Source of the DNA: a phage
Reading direction: 5' to 3' (one strand)
Length of the DNA stretch: 64,000 nucleotides
Sequence record: PX969468.1
Of the stretch, positions 17,255 to 49,512 are shown piece by piece (position 1 is the stretch's first letter; each line of letters begins with the position of its first letter). A model generated the notes under the pieces. It was not told the DNA's origin. It ran no database searches and saw only the letters and a program-made list of their open reading frames with translations. The translations under genes were made by a program, and so were the position numbers.

Positions 17255-18415
17255 TTATTTATTAGCAAATTTCTTCAAATGTTCTTCTACTAGCTCGAAT
17301 ACCTCCGGTCTGTAGTAGAAGAACTCTCGACAGCCATCAAACTTCTCTGTGAAGTTGATTTTGTATTGGCTCAAGGCTTGGTGCATAGCTTTTTCTAAAG
17401 TTTGCATGTCGTCTGTTGTTCCTTCCCAAGTTTTTATAACATGTAGATCAGAGAATCTAGCACCAGCTTTTTTAGCTCTTTTTAACACATCTTTTCTTCG
17501 TTCATCTACCCGGACACTCACACCAATTTTCATCATAGTTGGTACTTCCAGATCGTCAACCATGATATAAAGGCTACCATGTTCATGAGATAAGAAGCCG
17601 ACTTTAGCACATTTTTGACAGCCAGCTTTTTGGTTGATGTGGACAAACGGTTTTTGTGTGAACTCCCCGTGAATCGGACAGATGATAGTGACCTCTGTCT
17701 CCCTATTAACATATTCCACCCCGGAATAATCGTATTTATCTTTATGGATAGCTCTGGCTCTTGCCTCAAACCTTTTAGCCACCTCAGATGCTTTCTTTCT
17801 CTGCGTCTTCCTACTAACCTCGGCCACCTTCTTCTTCCCGCACTCGGGGCAACCTTTTCCACTTGGTGCATGGTCATGAGGTCTTTGTGGGAAGTGAGCA
17901 CCACATGTATTACAGATTATCTCCACTTTATCATTACCGGTTTTATAATTTACAAGAGAGTAATCATACTTATCGCCATGAAGCGCTTTTGCCTCAGCGA
18001 TCCACTCTTCAGTAGTCTTTCTCTCAGTTCCTCCACACTTACGGCAACCCCCCTCGCGGAGATGGTTATCAGGCTTTTGCTCAAACTCGCCGTGAACAGG
18101 ACAAACAATCACAACTTTAGTTTTAGCATTTACATACTCTACCTTAGAGTAATCATATTTATAATTATACTTAGCCTCGGCCTCCGCTTTAAATTTTTCA
18201 GCAGAAGCCGCTCTTTCTGCTTCAATCTGACATTTTGGGCAACCCTGTTTTTTACGGAGGTGATCTCCAAGAGTTTTCTTAAATTCTCCATGCTCAGGGC
18301 ATATAATTACAACCTTGGTGTGTGCACCCACATATTTGACTTTGGAATAATCATATTTATCACCATGAACTGCTTTCGCCCCCTCTATAAAATCTTCGGT
18401 TGTAAGTTTTCTCAC
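17255..18415 (-). CDS. repeat protein: four tandem ~60-aa zinc-ribbon-like modules plus C-terminal T5orf172/GIY-YIG-like domain (possible mobile endonuclease-like protein)
   Basis: Four repeats of YDYSKV.YV...TKVVIICPxHGEF...HL...GCxKC; C-terminus LYIM...MKIGVS...R...DLHVIK...REFF. Family assignment is from memory. Confidence 0.45.
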   Translation of the reverse strand: MRKLTTEDFIEGAKAVHGDKYDYSKVKYVGAHTKVVIICPEHGEFKKTLGDHLRKKQGCPKCQIEAERAASAEKFKAEAEAKYNYKYDYSKVEYVNAKTKVVIVCPVHGEFEQKPDNHLREGGCRKCGGTERKTTEEWIAEAKALHGDKYDYSLVNYKTGNDKVEIICNTCGAHFPQRPHDHAPSGKGCPECGKKKVAEVSRKTQRKKASEVAKRFEARARAIHKDKYDYSGVEYVNRETEVTIICPIHGEFTQKPFVHINQKAGCQKCAKVGFLSHEHGSLYIMVDDLEVPTMMKIGVSVRVDERRKDVLKRAKKAGARFSDLHVIKTWEGTTDDMQTLEKAMHQALSQYKINFTEKFDGCREFFYYRPEVFELVEEHLKKFANK

Positions 18416-18481: not shown

Positions 18482-19744
18482 TCAGCAACCACAACTTCCG
18501 TAGTGCTTAACTCGCTCGATAACTTCCGCTTGCTTACCTTTATTGTAAGGACGGGAGTTAGGACTGGAAAGGTATCCAGATACACGCCTGATCACACTGA
18601 TCGTACCTTCCTCATGGTTTCCACAACAAGGGCATATAAAACCTCTTGGAGAGGCTTTAAATTCTCCCTGGAAACCGCACTTGAAGCATTGGTCAACAGG
18701 CTGGTTTATACCGAAGTACATAATGTGTTTATACCCGAAGTCAACAAGAGCCTCTAAAGCATCCAGGTTGTTTTTCAGGTTAGGTGTTTCTACGTATCCG
18801 ATGTTGCCACCAGAGGAGATCATAGCAAAACCTTCCTCATACTCCCACTTATCAAAAGGAGAGCTATTTATCCATACTGGCTGATGGAAACTGTTGGTGA
18901 GATATTCATGCTCGTGCTTCAACACTTCCGGATATTCACGATCCAGACAGGTTGCAGCTTTATAGCATAGACTCTCAGAAGGAGTGCCGTACAAGCTAAA
19001 TGCTAGTCTACTTTCCTTCTTGTATCGCTCACAAGCATCTCTCATGTGCTGAAGGATTTCAAGAGCTAAAGCCTTGTCACCCTCTCTACCCAAAATCTGA
19101 CAGGTTTCATACACACCGATATACCCAATACTGATGGAAGCGTACCCGTCATAGAAGAGTTTATCAATACTCTCTTCAGGATCCAGGCGAGCAAGAGCGC
19201 CTTCACACCACATGATGGGGTTCTGCCCTGCCTTTGTTCCTTTTAGACGATTAACCCTTACAAGGTGAGCCTCGTATGCAAGATCCAAGTATTCGTCAAG
19301 AACTGCAAAGAAATCAACACCTTCCGTCTTGGCTTTTGCCGCAATCATTGGCAGGTTAAGGCTAACAACACCTAAGTTAAATCTACCAAGGTATTTCTCC
19401 TCGCCTGTTTCCAAGTCATTGTATTTGCTAAGAAAACTCCGGCAACCCATGCTCGTTACTTTGCCATCTGTCGAGCCTGTCACTTTTCTATTTAGTGGTA
19501 CAGATACGAAGTCAGGGTAGATACGTTCTGCACAGCATTCCAGAGCTAATCGTTTCAAATCATAGTTAGGATCCCCAGGGTTCATGTTGACACCCTCTTC
19601 CAGGAAGAACAGCACTTTAGGGAACACAGGTGTGATACGTTCTTCACCAAGACCCATTTTGTGGACTTTCAAGTAGTTTTTGGTAATCATTCTACCAAAG
19701 ACCGAGGTATCCAGTCCTAAACTTAATGTGATGAATGGAGTCTG
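18482..19744 (-). CDS. nrdD: anaerobic ribonucleoside-triphosphate reductase, exon 2
   Basis: In-frame extension upstream of the track ATG reads QTPFITLSLGLDTSVFGRM..., continuing T4 NrdD-like sequence; glycyl-radical motif RVSGYL and CxxC pairs at the C-terminus. Confidence 0.7.
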   Translation of the reverse strand, partial: QTPFITLSLGLDTSVFGRMITKNYLKVHKMGLGEERITPVFPKVLFFLEEGVNMNPGDPNYDLKRLALECCAERIYPDFVSVPLNRKVTGSTDGKVTSMGCRSFLSKYNDLETGEEKYLGRFNLGVVSLNLPMIAAKAKTEGVDFFAVLDEYLDLAYEAHLVRVNRLKGTKAGQNPIMWCEGALARLDPEESIDKLFYDGYASISIGYIGVYETCQILGREGDKALALEILQHMRDACERYKKESRLAFSLYGTPSESLCYKAATCLDREYPEVLKHEHEYLTNSFHQPVWINSSPFDKWEYEEGFAMISSGGNIGYVETPNLKNNLDALEALVDFGYKHIMYFGINQPVDQCFKCGFQGEFKASPRGFICPCCGNHEEGTISVIRRVSGYLSSPNSRPYNKGKQAEVIERVKHYGSCGC

Positions 19745-20541
19745 CTGTCTCCTCTCTGTGTTTCCACAGGGCCAGACTATCTCTTACTCTACTTCAATAA
19801 GATAATAACCCTTTATTGTGAGATGCTTACCTTCGGCATTTCCTTCGATAGCCCTATGAACGTTACCTACGTTCAAATTTAAGGCTTTTGCACAGGCATA
19901 AAGTGAAGGATATTCACCCACCAAGGTTTTCCCTTTATATGCCTGCACTTTCCTATAGCACTTACCTGGACAAAGTCCTGTTCGGAAAGCATGTCTCTTA
20001 TTATCTTCCGGCAAAACCCACTCTAGGTTAGACGGATGATCATTCAATGTATTGCCATCTTTATGATTCACTTCCCAGTTTTCAGGATCTTCTGGGACAT
20101 CTGGCAAACAATACAAGGCAACAATCCTTGAGGTTTGGATTCGAATCTTTTTACCTTTGTGGTTGAAAGAGTACATATAACGGCGTTTAACATGCTTGTT
20201 ACCTTTTCCATAACCTCCCCACAATATTGGGTGTAGCATTCCACGTTTTCCGTATACGTTTCCAACCTCATCAATCACATAGTTTGATTCTTCACCATTA
20301 AGAATGATCTTTTTCATAGAGCCTCTCCATTTCGAAGTTAGTATTTCAACTAACCCCTACACTACTTGGTTCAGAAATGTTTGTCAAGCATCTCTGCCTT
20401 TCGTTAGTCGTTACAACCGTTCCAACTCCTGTAAGAACTAGTCACGGGATTGGCATAGCTTTCGCCTTAGCGTTCCCCGTTAGCCGGATTTACCGACCCC
20501 TCTTATGAGGTTAGGAGAGTTTTACAACGGCCAGTTTGTTA
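19745..20541 (-). mobile_element. putative group I intron interrupting nrdD (about 797 nt) carrying an HNH endonuclease ORF
   Basis: Exon 1 ends ...TSVNG on a U; exon 2 resumes at QTPF after a G; the interval holds 224 nt non-coding, an HNH ORF, and 39 nt. T4 nrdD is known to carry a group I intron. Confidence 0.65.
19784..20317 (-). CDS. HNH homing endonuclease (intron-encoded)
   Basis: HNH motif VNHKDGNTLNDHPSNLEWVLPEDNKRHA. Confidence 0.65.
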   Translation of the reverse strand: MKKIILNGEESNYVIDEVGNVYGKRGMLHPILWGGYGKGNKHVKRRYMYSFNHKGKKIRIQTSRIVALYCLPDVPEDPENWEVNHKDGNTLNDHPSNLEWVLPEDNKRHAFRTGLCPGKCYRKVQAYKGKTLVGEYPSLYACAKALNLNVGNVHRAIEGNAEGKHLTIKGYYLIEVE

Positions 20542-21402
20542 ACCGTTGACAGAAGTTAACGTATTGATTTGGTAGAGCAAAGTCTGCATACTATCAAACA
20601 CGTCTTTATCTGTCATTTGCATTGCAACAGTCTCAGCATCTGGCAACCAATGTTCCTGACAAAATTTAAGGTTCTTCTCGTAGGTTGCTTCAGCATACTG
20701 TGCCAGATAATGATCAATATGGCTCATGGTCTGACCACCATATTGAGCACTAGCTACTGCACTAGAGATTTGGCTAAGGATTGTTGTTGCAACCCCTATT
20801 GACTTCGGCTTACTGACATGGGCGTTGCCAATGTTGAATCCGTTTTCCAGCATATCCGGATAATTTACCAAACAACAGTTTGTTAACGGACTGATCAGGT
20901 AGTCAAGATCATGCACATGGATGAAGCCTTTGTTGTGCTCTTCGGAGACACGGTCTGGCAGGATCTGTGTTGATGCAAGATGTTTGCTAAGGATGCCTGC
21001 AAGCAGGTCACGATGAGTATGAACATGATTAGTAGGCTTATTTGCGTTTTCTTTTGTAAATTCATCACAAGTTCGATCCAAGAAGCCACTAATATCTGCA
21101 AGCAGTTTTCCACCTGCCTCTCTGTTATTATCTCTTGTCTGTCTGTACTGGATGTATTCTCTGGCTGCACATTTTAAACCCATATCCATAAGAGCATCTT
21201 CAACAAGGATATGGATATTTTTTACAGAGATCGTGCACTGATCGGTTGGTAGATTGTTAGCAACAACTTCATTAACCGCACAGGCGATCCGGTAAGCTTC
21301 TTCTTCAGTATGTCCAGACTCAAGTAAGGCGGACTCTGCCGCCTTGATCACCTTAATTCCGTTATAGAACTCTTCTCTACCGTCCCGTTTTACAACTTTC
21401 AC
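20542..21402 (-). CDS. nrdD: anaerobic ribonucleoside-triphosphate reductase, exon 1
   Basis: ATP-cone N-terminus (KVVKRDGREEFYNGIKVIKA); ...KGFIHVHDLDY...GFNIGNAHVSKPKSIGVATTI... matches T4 NrdD from memory; ends at an in-frame stop inside the intron. Confidence 0.7.
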
Positions 21403-45166: not shown

Positions 45167-45241
45167 GCCCTGTTAGCTTAGTGGATAAAGCAGCGGCCTT
45201 CTAAGCCGTTGACACTGGTTCGAGTCCAGTACGGGGTGCCA
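45167..45241 (+). tRNA. tRNA-Arg (anticodon TCT)
   Basis: Cloverleaf folded by eye: 7-bp acceptor stem, D-arm GCTT/AAGC, anticodon loop CTTCTAA, T-arm ACTGG-TTCGAGT-CCAGT, encoded CCA. Confidence 0.75.
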
Positions 45242-45245
45242 AATT

Positions 45246-45332
45246 GGGGAGTTATCCCGTAGAGGTAGCGGTGTAGACTGTAAATCTATTGTCATTGCGA
45301 CTCGGGTGGTTCGACTCCACCACTCCCCACCA
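45246..45332 (+). tRNA. tRNA-Tyr (anticodon GTA), type II with long variable arm
   Basis: Acceptor GGGGAGT/ACTCCCC, anticodon loop CTGTAAA, T-arm GGTGG-TTCGACT-CCACC, CCA. Confidence 0.75.
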
Positions 45333-45446
45333 AATTTATATTTTTAAATGCATAAATCATACAGATAATGACATTGATATTTATCGTCGTTTATACTAGT
45401 CACTAACTGCTCGAAAATCAGTGTCATTATCAGTGTAATTTATAAA

Positions 45447-45537
45447 GGAGGGTAGGGAGCAATGGTGCTCAAGCGGTCTTGAAAACCGTCCCGTTGAGGA
45501 TGACTCGATGATGGTTCGATTCCATTACTCTCCGCCA
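45447..45537 (+). tRNA. tRNA-Ser (anticodon TGA), type II
   Basis: Acceptor GGAGGGT/ACTCTCC, anticodon loop CTTGAAA, long variable arm, T-loop TTCGATT, CCA. Confidence 0.65.
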
Positions 45538-45635
45538 CATTGTTGACCTTGTAATTAAGCGAAAGCCGGAAGCAGAACCGGATTATCAAATGTTACAGTC
45601 GTCATCGCCGACTAGCCACATGGTCAACATATTGC

Positions 45636-45734
45636 GCTAGGTAAGCCCTTTGGCAAGGGCGAGGATTTTTAATCCTGAAAATAGACGAGGTAGTCGTTGA
45701 ATACATAGGTGGTTCGATTCCATCACCTAGCACC
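45636..45734 (+). tRNA. atypical tRNA-like gene (about 99 nt; Lys TTT-like anticodon loop; about 29-nt extra region); possible pseudogene
   Basis: Perfect 7-bp acceptor (GCTAGGT/ACCTAGC), D-arm, T-arm GGTGG-TTCGATT-CCATC, anticodon loop TTTTTAA with a 4-bp stem; insertion too long for a canonical type I tRNA; no full CCA. Confidence 0.35.
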
Positions 45735-45738
45735 TTTT

Positions 45739-45814
45739 GCTGATGTAGCACAATTGGCAGTGCAATTGATTTGTAATCAATAGGTTGCAGGTTCAAGTCC
45801 TGCCATCAGCACCA
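45739..45814 (+). tRNA. tRNA-Thr (anticodon TGT)
   Basis: Acceptor GCTGATG/CATCAGC, D-arm GCAC/GTGC, anticodon stem ATTGA/TCAAT, loop TTTGTAA, T-arm GCAGG-TTCAAGT-CCTGC, CCA. Confidence 0.8.
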
Positions 45815-45815
45815 T

Positions 45816-45890
45816 GGCCCTGTAGCTGGAAGGTTCAAGCAAGCGACTCATAATCGCCAGACGGTGGTTCAATTCCACCCAGGGCCACCA
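45816..45890 (+). tRNA. tRNA-Met or Ile2 (anticodon CAT)
   Basis: Acceptor GGCCCTG/CAGGGCC, anticodon loop CTCATAA, T-arm GGTGG-TTCAATT-CCACC, CCA; G1-C72 argues against initiator. Confidence 0.7.
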
Positions 45891-45901
45891 AATAATAAAT
45901 A

Positions 45902-45978
45902 CTCCGCGTAGCTCAGCTTGGTAGAGCGCCTGATTTGGGATCAGGAGGTCGAGTGTTCGAATCACTCCGTGGAGACCA
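45902..45978 (+). tRNA. tRNA-Pro (anticodon TGG)
   Basis: C1-G72 acceptor, D-arm GCTCAGCTTGGTAGAGC, anticodon stem CCTGA/TCAGG, loop TTTGGGA, T-arm GAGTG-TTCGAAT-CACTC, CCA. Confidence 0.8.
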
Positions 45979-46798: not shown

Positions 46799-47082
46799 GA
46801 GTTACTGCACTGGTTGTTTTGTGCTTGTTATTGTGTGGGTGTGCAACCAGCGTTGAGAGAGAATACAAGATTGACCCTCCGGATGTAGGAAGGTTGATTG
46901 TTAAACCTCCCGAGGGTGCTATGAAACCACCTGCTAAAGCTATCCCTTTGAAGAAAGGTGCGCCAGATGCGGTGAATTCTGGCATTATGAGGGATAATAA
47001 CCTGTCTTGTAGTAATGATAGAGCTAAATTGATCATTTTGCAAGACTATATAAGAACACTGTTTCCAAAGGAGAGAGGTTAA
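46795..47082 (+). CDS. o-spanin (Rz1-like) outer-membrane lipoprotein
   Basis: Signal peptide with lipobox-like LLCGC, proline-rich mature region; start overlaps the i-spanin stop (separate architecture). Confidence 0.6.
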   Translation: MRVTALVVLCLLLCGCATSVEREYKIDPPDVGRLIVKPPEGAMKPPAKAIPLKKGAPDAVNSGIMRDNNLSCSNDRAKLIILQDYIRTLFPKERG

Positions 47083-47507
47083 TGTCTAAGATTTACGGAC
47101 CGTGTTCTGAAAAGCAGAAGATGATCCTAGAGAACGATGCAGATATTTTGGTGATCGGAGGTGCAGCTGGGTCTGGAAAGTCGTTCCTCTTGCAGCTAAT
47201 GCCACTTAAAATTATTGATGACCCACACAGCTCTGTGGTTATGTTCCGAAGAACAACTCCACAGTTGGAAGGTGAGGGTGGGCTATGGCCTAAAGCAGTA
47301 GCTATTTACAGTGATCTGCCTGAAAACATTAAACCAAAGTTCAGAGAGAAGGATCATAAGTTTATTTTTCCACGGTTTGATCCGAGCACTGGCAAGTGGG
47401 ACAGGAGCAAAAAAGGGGCCGTTGTAAAATACTGCCACATGGAGTATGTCCAAGATAAGCTTAACCATCAAGGCCTTGAGTACACCATGGTTTGCTTCGA
47501 TGAGGGT
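47082..47507 (+). CDS. terminase large subunit, exon 1 (ATPase N-terminal part)
   Basis: Walker A GGAAGSGKS, Walker B-like MVCFDEG; reading frame stops right after the Walker B region. Confidence 0.65.
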
Positions 47508-47557
47508 TAATTTGTAGCTCTCGTAAAACCTCCCTAATTGCGGGGAAATCTTTATTA

Positions 47558-47586
47558 TTGACACCACCAACCTGTTATGGTAACAT
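47558..47586 (+). promoter_or_regulatory. sigma70-like promoter inside the intron (TTGACA-17-TAACAT)
   Basis: Hexamers at 17-bp spacing about 140 nt upstream of the endonuclease ORF. Confidence 0.4.
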
Positions 47587-47725
47587 GATAGAGGCTTCGA
47601 AGAGAGATCGAAGGTATGGTAACAGTGTGTTGATTTAGATAATCCGCAGCGAAGCATCCGAGAGGATGAACGTTCAACGACTAGTCGAAAGACGTAGAAT
47701 CAAGCGATTCGAAACGGGAGGGTGA

Positions 47726-48316
47726 ATGTGTAATACTAAAAAATGTATGGATTGCCAAAGAGTTCTACCTCTTGATGATTTCTTTTTATCATCTAAGAGC
47801 CAGGATGGATACTCAGGTACATGCAAGGAATGCTATATGTACTACAGGAAGAATGGATCTCGTAGAAACAAAAATATGGTTAAGAGAGATGATGCAGCAT
47901 CTTTTATTCAAGACTTACTGAAGAAAGGTGAGCTTTTTGAATGTAAATCTTGTCATGAAAGTATGCTTGCTGATAGTTTTTACACAAAACGCGACTATGG
48001 TAAAGTGTATCTAGTCACGAACAGGTGTAAGATGTGTGAAAAGTTTTATCAGATTGAGAAGAAATTTCACATAACAAAAGATGAATACTATCGTCTACTC
48101 TCAGATCAAGATCATAAGTGTGCAATCTGTAGAATATCTCTTGATGAGTATAAGACTCAAGGATATAGAGATTTCTTTTGTGTTGATCATGACCATAAAA
48201 CTGGTGCTGTAAGAGGGTTGCTTTGTGATAAATGCAACAGGGCTTTAGGTTTCTTCCAAGAGGATGAGGAAACCATTCTTAGAGCGGCAGAGTATTTACA
48301 CATTCATAAGATATAG
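47726..48316 (+). CDS. endonuclease VII-like / HNH-family zinc-finger homing endonuclease (intron-encoded)
   Basis: CVDHDHKTGAVRGLLCDKCNRALGF matches the EndoVII core; several upstream CxxC pairs. Confidence 0.6.
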   Translation: MCNTKKCMDCQRVLPLDDFFLSSKSQDGYSGTCKECYMYYRKNGSRRNKNMVKRDDAASFIQDLLKKGELFECKSCHESMLADSFYTKRDYGKVYLVTNRCKMCEKFYQIEKKFHITKDEYYRLLSDQDHKCAICRISLDEYKTQGYRDFFCVDHDHKTGAVRGLLCDKCNRALGFFQEDEETILRAAEYLHIHKI

Positions 48317-48390
48317 TCTGGTCTGCATGGAGACATGCAGCTGCCTGAAAATGGCGGGGCAAGACTAGCGACCTTGCCCGAACATAAACG

Positions 48391-49512
48391 ACGCAATTCG
48401 AATGGGAGCAGATAGACTATTTGATGTCTCGTCTGCGATCTCAGTCAAAGTATCCATCAAGAATGGTTATCAGCTGTAACCCCGACTCAGAACACATGCT
48501 TGCCAAACTGGTTAGGTGGTGGTTGGACGATGAAGGGTATCCAGATCCGGAGAAATGCGGTAAGAAAAGATATTTTATCCGACGCGACGGGGAATTTATC
48601 TGGGGAGATTCTAAAGAAGAGTTGATAGAGAAATACACCACGGTTAACGGACTTGGCGTAGAGATCAAGCCAAGACCGTTGTCATTCTCGTTCATAGGCG
48701 CAACAATATTCGATAATCCTGTCTGTTTGAGAGACAACCCAGAATACCTTGCTTTCCTCGAAGGTCTACCAGAGCTGGAAAAAGCTCAGCTTCTCCATGG
48801 TAACTGGTTTGCAAAGCCTGAGGGTGCAAACTATTTTCAAAGATCTTTCCTTCGTGATGCCGATAGAGTACCTCTTGGGTCAGTATCTTGCAGGGCATGG
48901 GATAAGGCAGGAACCGAGAGAACTTCCGGTAATAAATTTCCTGACTTTACTGCCAGTATTAAGGTAAGTAAAGATAGCGACGGATTTTATTACCTGTCCG
49001 GTGATTATTGTCCTGAGAACGTGGATGACGGGAGGTATTCCACAGGTCTGGAAGGCAAGTTCTGTAAAAAGGCTGGTGAACGAGATGTGATCATCAGGAA
49101 ACAGGCGCAGTTCGATGGTGATGATTGCATAATCGTCTTCTCTGTGGACCCAGGGCAGGCAGGTAAGAGTGAGTTCTTAACCTCCTCCAGATCCTTGCTT
49201 GCCGAAGGGTTCAGGGTTGAAGAAGACCCAATGCCTTCCAACAAGTCTAAACTGACAAGGTTCTCACCTTTTGCCAATCTTGCCCAACAAGGAATGGTGA
49301 GGATTGTAAAATCCAGTTTCCATCCTGATACTCTGGAAGCATTTCTGACTGAACTTGAAAAATTCAACGGGGAAAGATCAACATTTAACAGAAAAGACGA
49401 CTGGGCCGACTGCGTAGCTTCTGCGATTAATTTCCTGGAGAAAGAGGAGGTAGCACTTCCTTGTGTGATTCCATCAATCTCATCACCTTCTATGTTCAAG
49501 CGTTTTATCTAA
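48391..49512 (+). CDS. terminase large subunit, exon 2 (ATPase motif C plus nuclease domain)
   Basis: In-frame region upstream of the track start reads TQFEWEQIDYLMSRLRS...; ISCNPD coupling motif; nuclease Asp contexts RAWDKAGT, IVFSVDPGQ, DDWADCVASA. Confidence 0.65.
   Translation, partial: TQFEWEQIDYLMSRLRSQSKYPSRMVISCNPDSEHMLAKLVRWWLDDEGYPDPEKCGKKRYFIRRDGEFIWGDSKEELIEKYTTVNGLGVEIKPRPLSFSFIGATIFDNPVCLRDNPEYLAFLEGLPELEKAQLLHGNWFAKPEGANYFQRSFLRDADRVPLGSVSCRAWDKAGTERTSGNKFPDFTASIKVSKDSDGFYYLSGDYCPENVDDGRYSTGLEGKFCKKAGERDVIIRKQAQFDGDDCIIVFSVDPGQAGKSEFLTSSRSLLAEGFRVEEDPMPSNKSKLTRFSPFANLAQQGMVRIVKSSFHPDTLEAFLTELEKFNGERSTFNRKDDWADCVASAINFLEKEEVALPCVIPSISSPSMFKRFI

Follow-up and report, generated by a model that had tools for sequence, protein, structure and literature searches.

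How might nrdD of an rV5-like Vequintavirus coliphage, split by 797 nt, give rise to a normal NrdD, and what is the DNA that splits it? The gene lies on the minus strand (21402..18482, as do all features described below) of the window, a 64,000-nt stretch of phage DNA (PX969468.1), and the interruption occupies 20541..19745. The initial annotation had read this interval as a putative group I intron that carries an HNH ORF, and its coordinates for the split gene are all correct, to the single base. Exon 1 (20542..21402) has a GTG start that overlaps the stop of the glutaredoxin gene, is colinear with rV5 nrdD, and extends from the ATP-cone to ...NTLTSVNG. Exon 2 (18482..19744) begins with QTPFITLSLGLDTSVFGRM (QTPFITL...) and runs through the glycyl-radical domain (RVSGYL) to the stop. 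Excision of the 797 nt gives a 2124-nt gene with a 707-aa product. The joined protein covers the full Pfam NRDD profile (1-562 of 562), with the junction inside the match, and also matches Pfam ATP-cone and Gly_radical. The proposed colinearity of the two exons with T4 NrdD is confirmed (45% identity, gap-free at the junction), and 694 of 708 positions (stop counted) are identical to those of the uninterrupted rV5 NrdD. The rV5 allele, which includes AACGGGCAAACT, is exactly as long as exon 1 plus exon 2, and the joined junction is matched unbroken in about 76 intron-less phage records. An intein was considered and ruled out, as TAA stands directly after ...NTLTSVNG, the last exon-1 codon, so that there is no stop-free in-frame insert.

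The distribution of the insert among relatives, present or absent at the same nucleotide across dozens of related genomes, indicates that it is no chance feature. Within approximately 119 related Vequintavirus records, the ORF-containing insert occurs in 28, an ORF-less version of 257 nt occupies the same nrdD site in 14, and about 76 have no insert. Such variation in the occupancy of a single site between close relatives is a footprint of mobility. Homologous introns are found at the same NG/Q site (the slash marks the insertion point) in unrelated nrdD backgrounds (L035, L044, L049, L050 and L052). In every intron-bearing allele the final base of exon 1 is U and that of the intron is G; five intron-less nrdD alleles have GGG where exon 1 would end. 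The copies in WalterGehring, EmilHeitz, MaxBurger, FV3, FFH2, slur16 and others are 97-99.9% identical to the window intron over the 797 nt, with no difference of substance. Two further intron sites (second and third) are located close by in nrdD.

The presence and absence of the insert in relatives, a sub-threshold match to RF00028 and covariation together identify the interval 19745..20541, which starts with the in-frame stop TAA and ends in G, as a group I intron. The final six bases of exon 1 (AACGGT, 20547..20542) form the 5' strand of P1, and the internal guide sequence GCCGTT (20526..20531) forms its 3' strand, the G of which pairs with the last exon U. This U•G pair at the 5' splice site of P1 (AACGGU/GCCGUU) is invariant in all seven sequences, and a flanking pair (alignment columns 6/29) covaries between C-G and U-A. 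The 5' strand of P3 (CTCTCC, 20514..20519) pairs with GGAGAG (20328..20323), a pairing recovered by both MFE folding and RNAalifold, and a compensatory change from C-G to G-C is seen in the HeinrichReichert type. Between P3 and P4 are two hairpins (20483..20510), which we name P3.1 (CCTC/GAGG) and P3.2 (GTCGG/CCGGC), both with covariation. A literature search for named P3.1/P3.2 elements returned a single line, which counts P3.1 among the optional helices of group I introns. On visual inspection, many related phage introns have both hairpins in their flanking sequence as well.

P4-P5-P5a (20445..20479) has a GAAA loop, and in its P4-P5 region it shares 85-88% identity with introns in the DNA polymerase genes of Listeria phage LP-114 and Bacillus phage S4-2. 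All lineages have a hairpin at the place of P6/P6a (20416..20442), but its sequence differs from one lineage to the next. The 5' strand of P7 (GACTA, 20405..20409) pairs with TAGTC (19779..19775, preceded by J8/7 AAGAGA), and this pairing is invariant; the adjoining AACGACTA and AGATAGTC agree with the cores of phage IA2 introns. Two hairpins separate P7 from the 3' strand of P3: P7.1 (20368..20398), which is variable and holds TTGACA in its loop, and P7.2 (20334..20357), which covaries strongly, with double changes in six of its nine pairs. P8, which also covaries, is made of GCTCTA (20322..20317) and TAGAGT (19791..19786). P9 (19754..19771) is closed by a GAAA loop, and a G-to-A change in the window copy leaves one C·A mismatch that is without counterpart in relatives.

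The core thus comprises helices P3-P9 with the P3/P7 pseudoknot, and its covariation support was quantified in an alignment of seven sequences (A2). In this alignment 94.7% of the cells are paired, compared to 34-47% with slid partners, and 25 pairs are doubly changed, compared to 3-9 in the slid controls; the observed value was reached in none of 500 shuffles. The P3 and P7 pairs are invariant within this set. The HeinrichReichert-type and L035 introns were left out because MAFFT misaligned both in the P7.1-P8 region, and their helices were checked one by one by script. RNAalifold independently recovered P1, P3, P3.1, P3.2, P4, P5, P5a, P6a, P7.2, P8, P9 and the hairpin at the 3' splice site described below, and the MFE z-scores were -4.4 and -3.35.

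A search with Infernal group I models was the check proposed at the outset. Rfam at gathering thresholds found no intron. In E-value mode, RF00028 (Intron_gpI) matches the window at 28.0 bits (E 8e-5, local search) and aligns at full length to an ORF-less relative at 29.8 bits (E 7e-6, local search), both below the gathering score of 50. The window match runs in part into the ORF, where it is misaligned, as the model has no means of skipping the 530-nt insert in L8. An alternative P3 taken from the Rfam alignment (CGCUG/CAGGG) was ruled out, since its two strands are not complementary in the window-type sequence. As for the subgroup, P7.1 and P7.2 are in the position that is typical of IA2, whereas the extended P9 domain of that subgroup (P9.0, P9.1, P9.2) is not found: only 30 nt follow P7', with room taken by P9 and a short tail, and there is no P9.1 or P9.2.

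P10 amounts to just 2-3 bp in most lineages. A hairpin spans the 3' splice site (19737..19752), in which GGAG (19752..19749) pairs with positions +5 to +8 of exon 2 (CTCC, 19740..19737), and its loop contains the terminal G of the intron and the first exon bases. All variants of the intron end in G (...ACAG, ...ACCG, ...AAUG or ...CUGG), as expected of an omega-G. The hairpin exists in five different complementary versions across lineages, and its covariation tracks both synonymous and non-synonymous exon changes. These features allow a bolder reading, to which we give only tentative credence: the NG/Q introns of nrdD may form a sub-lineage of their own among phage group I introns, one in which a short exon-2-pairing hairpin (in its five covarying versions) replaces the long P9 domain and P10 as a 3'-splice-site device that co-evolves with the host gene, and in which L8 carries an endonuclease cassette with its own P7.1 promoter and a ribosome-binding site masked by P3.

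The P8 loop carries the gene of an I-HmuI-like HNH endonuclease (19784..20317, 177 aa; Pfam HNH_3, PHROG 59), in agreement with the HNH ORF originally assigned to the interval. The protein scores 29.3 bits against PF13392 (HNH_3; cutoff 24.8) and aligns end to end with I-HmuI (PDB 1U3E, E 2.7e-4). Against the C-terminal NUMOD/helix-turn-helix profile PF22083 it scores 18.4 bits (cutoff 27), and the 1U3E alignment spans this region. The homologues that we inspected are all inside nrdD, and a search with the HNH protein for related loci in viral contigs found nothing. The 3' strand of P3 (GGAGAG, 20323..20328) doubles as the Shine-Dalgarno sequence of the ORF. Upstream lies a weak, sigma-70-like candidate promoter made of TTGACA (20387..20382, in the P7.1 loop), a spacer of 17 nt and TAGTGT (20364..20359), the -10 hexamer of which is poor (3/6). 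TTGACA is kept in the four ORF-bearing lineages and is missing from the ORF-less lineages; a promoter scan did not list the TTGACA-N17-TAGTGT site. That this site serves the HNH gene as its promoter is a weak hypothesis.

Is the endonuclease of the window copy still a homing enzyme? The ribozyme might continue to splice while the endonuclease gene no longer serves homing, which would place this copy late in the homing cycle. Derivatives without the ORF exist in two lineages (HeinrichReichert type compared to window type, and L044 compared to L050), and the catalytic His of the window protein is preceded by Asn, in place of the Asp of I-HmuI. Against such a loss, the ORF is intact over its full length, with 87-99% conservation across many genomes and a 168-member cluster, and the HNH motif retains its His and Asn, which align with those of I-HmuI. 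We regard the loss of homing as unlikely, although it is the strongest of the competing explanations.

The hallmarks of the core, the covariation and the HNH_3 domain bear out the reading of the insert as a group I intron that encodes an HNH homing endonuclease. It is very probably a mobile, phage IA2-like group I intron in nrdD of this rV5-like Vequintavirus, for which we infer both splicing and homing. The pre-mRNA is predicted to fold into the group I core (P1, P3-P9) with the hairpins P3.1, P3.2, P7.1 and P7.2. An external guanosine would attack on the 3' side of the exon-1 U in the wobble pair with the guide sequence, the terminal G of the intron would then take the place of the guanosine, and the exons would be joined to encode the normal 707-aa NrdD. 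The TAA, as the first codon of the intron, keeps ribosomes out of the fold. By analogy with known homing enzymes, the HNH protein would nick or cut intron-less nrdD (AACGGG/CAAAC) in mixed infections, and repair would then copy the intron into the cut allele. The ribosome-binding site of the HNH ORF is probably the 3' strand of P3 and would therefore be expected to be masked in the folded precursor; the enzyme could perhaps be expressed from the weak promoter-like site in P7.1, as in the case of the T4 intron ORFs.

A different reading would dispense with splicing: a free-standing HNH gene was inserted into nrdD, and NrdD is made as two polypeptides that assemble later, as with mobE in nrdA of Aeromonas phage Aeh1. 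The Aeh1 case is a precedent, and two separate nrdD CDSs are annotated in many records. However, exon 2 has neither a start codon nor a ribosome-binding site at QTPF, and a start at its first ATG, 17 codons in, would lose conserved residues. The 257-nt version persists at the same site without any ORF, and the sequences on either side of the ORF form a ribozyme core that covaries. We consider a split NrdD highly improbable.

The intron is a real and ordinary mobile element, and in near-identical public phage genomes it is already annotated as an intron. In the BASEL GenBank records the nrdD CDS is a join that encloses a 'putative homing endonuclease', and the BASEL paper used comparative genomics to set intron boundaries. 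The rV5 paper deals with terminase introns only, and our literature search found no paper on an nrdD intron in rV5-like phages. In many public Vequintavirus records nrdD is broken up into two or three separate "genes", with a hypothetical protein in addition; such entries should be re-annotated to show a joined CDS, an intron and a homing endonuclease. The locus leaves existing knowledge of group I introns unchanged, and it offers a well-sampled natural series at one site (ORF-containing intron, ORF-less intron and empty alleles) that is usable for studies of the homing cycle and of intron-exon co-evolution.

The intron of T4 nrdD (sunY) invites the closest comparison. It has in common with the window intron the gene, the conserved region, an IA2-type phage ribozyme and an early in-frame stop. 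Its insertion point follows the first base of codon Tyr180, a junction that we confirmed against the crystallised T4 NrdD (1H78), and, as stated at the outset, it encodes a GIY-YIG enzyme, I-TevII. The window intron is inserted between Gly287 and Gln288, Gly287 corresponding to G190 of T4. The initial suggestion that the endonuclease had been swapped at a conserved site, with an HNH gene in place of I-TevII, is the least probable reading of all and fails on alignment to T4 nrdD and its intron: although both introns are in the same short conserved stretch of nrdD and their IA2-like cores have similar J1/3 (GUAAAA), P3 and P7.2-P3' motifs, the T4 site is 32 nt upstream, the T4 ORF is downstream of P9 (intron nt 236-1012) and not in L8, P3.1 and P3.2 are missing in T4, and blastn gives no significant match of one intron to the other (best E 0.35), whereas a different intron, present in some relatives, is clearly T4-like. 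That intron (phita32, VB-EcoM-WM, L044 and L035) combines a T4-nrdD-like core (79% identity over 120 nt, E 2e-23) with an HNH ORF, is inserted at the third nrdD site, after ...TSMG, and is missing from the window.

Beyond T4, the RB3 nrdB intron with I-TevIII is likewise a case of an HNH endonuclease in an intron of an RNR gene of a T-even-type phage. It is set apart, by description, by the different gene, and I-TevIII is of a different HNH architecture, a dimeric zinc-finger enzyme. Among group I introns with HNH ORFs in DNA-metabolism genes of phages, close known systems are the SPO1 DNA polymerase intron with I-HmuI, the LP-114 DNA polymerase I intron, and the RNR introns of Twort and SPbeta, with which the window intron has in common an IA2-like core with P7.1 and P7.2. 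Its HNH protein, at about 175 aa, is similar to the SPO1 intron enzyme, and, as in other HNH-bearing phage group I introns, the insertion targets a nucleotide-metabolism gene in one of its conserved stretches. In contrast to the SPO1, LP-114, Twort and SPbeta introns, its host gene is nrdD with insertion at NG/Q, its P9 domain is very short, and a hairpin spans its 3' splice site; its ORF occupies L8, while that of the LP-114 and S4-2 introns is found in P6.

The nrdD gene of the window runs on the minus strand and is interrupted by a 797-nt insert (20541..19745). Judged from its sequence, this element is truly a group I intron, and L8 contains a putative I-HmuI-like HNH homing-endonuclease gene. 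The first nrdD ORF extends from 21402 to 20539 and ends in ...NTLTSVNG followed by TAA, the first codon of the intron. The exon 2 frame opens with QTPFITLSLG... at 19744 and continues to the stop at 18482, and an HNH-like ORF (20317..19784, minus strand) lies between the exons. When 21402..20542 is joined to 19744..18482, the product is a protein of 707 aa that matches the full Pfam NRDD profile (1–562 of 562), as well as ATP-cone and Gly_radical. It is 45% identical to T4 NrdD, and the alignment is ungapped at the junction. The exon coordinates and the interval of the initial annotation were exact, and the collinearity with T4 NrdD that it stated holds. The rV5 nrdD has the same length as the joined exons (2124 nt), and the two proteins are identical at 694 of 708 positions (stop included).

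The intron folds as follows. P1 pairs exon AACGGU with GCCGUU, with a U•G at the splice site, and J1/3 (GUAAAA) leads into P3 (CUCUCC with GGAGAG). Two hairpins, named here P3.1 and P3.2, lie between P3 and P4 (CGGGG/UCCCG). P5/P5a, capped by a GAAA loop, is 3' of P4, followed by P6/P6a, P7 (GACUA with UAGUC), P7.1 and P7.2, P8 (GCUCUA with UAGAGU), whose loop is the HNH ORF, J8/7 (AAGAGA), P9 with its GAAA loop, and the terminal G at the 3' end. Minimum-free-energy (MFE) folding with the L8 ORF removed recovered P1, the long-range P3, P3.1, P3.2, P4–P5a, P6a, P7.1, P7.2 and P8; the MFE z-score was -4.4, and that of an ORF-less relative was -3.35. The group I model search that had been proposed did match Rfam Intron_gpI, at scores below the gathering score of 50: 28 bits for the window intron, and 29.8 bits (E 7e-6) for the ORF-less relative, aligned end to end. 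The P3.1/P3.2 motif was seen by eye 5' of P4 in many related phage introns (P3 was explicitly traced in one, locus L036) and is not peculiar to this one; one source counts P3.1 among the optional helices of group I introns. P9 of the window (19754–19771, minus strand) has a G-to-A change, CACAGAG versus CACAGGG in most relatives, that leaves one C·A mismatch.

The fold is matched by covariation. In an alignment of seven intron sequences, trimmed of the ORF, 94.7% of the cells were paired in the proposed structure, compared to 34–47% when the 3' partners were slid, and 25 pairs had changed on both sides (3–9 with slid partners). Values as high as those observed were not obtained in any of 500 shuffles. 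RNAalifold, supplied with no structure, predicted P1, P3, P3.1, P3.2, P4, P5, P5a, P6a, P7.2, P8 and P9. The HeinrichReichert type (an ORF-less 257-nt intron) and that of locus L035 were misaligned by MAFFT, and their helices were checked by script instead. All helices form in both, with a compensatory C-G to G-C change in P3 and with P3.2, P6a, P7.2, P8 and P9 of wholly different sequence.

The region is 94–97% identical to that of the rV5-like phages (genus Vequintavirus), in which the intron is polymorphic. Three allelic states occur at one identical nucleotide position of nrdD, the NG|Q site between Gly287 and Gln288: the 797-nt insert that contains the HNH ORF (28 records, 97–99.9% identity), the ORF-less 257-nt insert (14 records, HeinrichReichert among them), and an uninterrupted match to the computed spliced junction (~76 records, including rV5). 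Five intron-less alleles read AACGGG|CAAAC and every intron-bearing allele reads AACGGT|, which supplies the U required at a group I 5' splice site. The element is an ordinary finding, and near-identical genomes in public databases already mark it as an intron: in BASEL-collection records, nrdD is a CDS joined from two parts that flank a "putative homing endonuclease", and the BASEL paper used comparative genomics to set intron boundaries. Our literature search did not find a paper describing this nrdD intron. Pattern and protein searches placed homologous introns at NG|Q in other nrdD backgrounds (loci L035, which is T4-like, L044, L050, L049 and L052). The contigs of L044 (ORF-less) and L050 (with ORF) belong to one lineage, with nrdD exons identical around the splice site, and provide a second, independent case in which the ORF was gained or lost. 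In phage V18 (L056, NC_041937 80347–80744), HeinrichReichert-type exons meet as AACGGT|AACCCC; besides the intron, two more bases (CA) are missing, nrdD is frameshifted, and no CDS is annotated at the locus. Either the intron was lost imprecisely or the assembly is in error.

A split gene that does not splice, as in Aeh1 nrdA/mobE, has that precedent in its favor. It is unlikely here: exon 2 lacks a start signal at QTPF, the site retains an insert even where the ORF is missing, and the sequences on either side of the ORF fold into a ribozyme with covarying helices. The stop codon immediately after exon 1 excludes an intein. The endonuclease may have decayed, but its ORF is both intact and conserved. 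We infer that the nrdD intron splices and homes.

The initial assignment of a group I intron with an HNH ORF is borne out. The ORF, of 177 aa, contains an HNH_3 domain (29.3 bits, cutoff 24.8) and a below-threshold match to the I-HmuI NUMOD-like model, and is a member of PHROG 59. Its residues 8–160 align with I-HmuI (PDB 1U3E; E 2.7e-4), which nicks DNA and is encoded in the SPO1 DNA polymerase intron. Both the His and the Asn of the I-HmuI motif are kept, whereas the residue preceding the His is Asp in I-HmuI and Asn here. Homologues at 52–65% identity were inside nrdD genes wherever the context was inspected. The 3' strand of P3 doubles as the Shine-Dalgarno (GGAGAGG), and the start codon adjoins P8; the ribosome-binding site should therefore be occluded in the modeled precursor. 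TTGACA in the P7.1 loop is kept in the four ORF-bearing lineages and not in the ORF-less ones; in the window, a 17-nt spacer separates it from a downstream TAGTGT. A transcript begun there would be without the P3 5' strand, exposing the ribosome-binding site, the same expression logic as described for T4 intron ORFs. Because the -10 hexamer is poor and our promoter scan did not list the site, the P7.1 promoter is hypothetical.

A hairpin spans the 3' splice site (19737–19752, minus strand; same place in loci L002, L035, L044, L049, L050 and L052). It forms in every lineage between the 3' end of the intron and positions +5 to +8 of exon 2, with the terminal G and first exon bases in the loop. 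The pairing covaries through five complementary versions (GGAG/CUCC, GGGG/CCCC, GGGCA/UGCCC, GGCUG/CAGCC and GGCG/CGCC) that follow changes in exon 2 codons 2–3. We found no named group I element corresponding to it. P10 is weak (2–3 bp in most lineages, 6 bp in L035) and the P9 domain is minimal. The hairpin may help to present the 3' splice site.

A second group I intron (47498–48340, plus strand; RF00028 48.3 bits, E 3e-9, slightly below the gathering threshold) interrupts the gene for the terminase large subunit, with exons at about 47082–47510 and 48421–49512. It contains an endonuclease VII/HNH-like ORF (47726–48316) and is the counterpart of the terL intron reported for rV5. At least six tRNA genes cluster at 45167–45975 (plus strand). 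Downstream of nrdD (17255–18415, minus strand) is a free-standing 386-aa putative homing endonuclease with repeated DUF723/treble-clef zinc modules and a C-terminal T5orf172/MUG113 domain; its gene is not at this place in HeinrichReichert or rV5. In T4, by comparison, mobC lies between nrdD and nrdG.

The initial annotation contrasted the HNH ORF with the GIY-YIG ORF of the T4 nrdD intron, correctly, and from this suggested an endonuclease swap at a conserved site. The comparison with T4 contradicts the swap. The T4 intron (1033 nt, coding for the GIY-YIG enzyme I-TevII) interrupts codon Tyr180 after its first base, at a point 32 nt upstream of the window site, and the protein sequence across its junction, AYE|YEVNTLF, agrees exactly with that of the crystallised NrdD (1H78). 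Its ORF (intron nt 236–1012) is downstream of P9, whereas that of the window is in L8, and it is without P3.1 and P3.2, both present in the window intron. In blastn the two introns had no significant similarity (best E 0.35). Another nrdD intron, after ...TSMG, occurs in phita32 (L003 2468–3217), VB-EcoM-WM, L044 and L035, with an HNH ORF in P6 or ORF-less; the window is without it. A stretch of ~300 nt in nrdD thus holds at least three intron sites. The swap does not fit the element in the window and is wrong; it is the ...TSMG intron whose core resembles that of the T4 nrdD intron (79% identity across 120 nt, E 2e-23).
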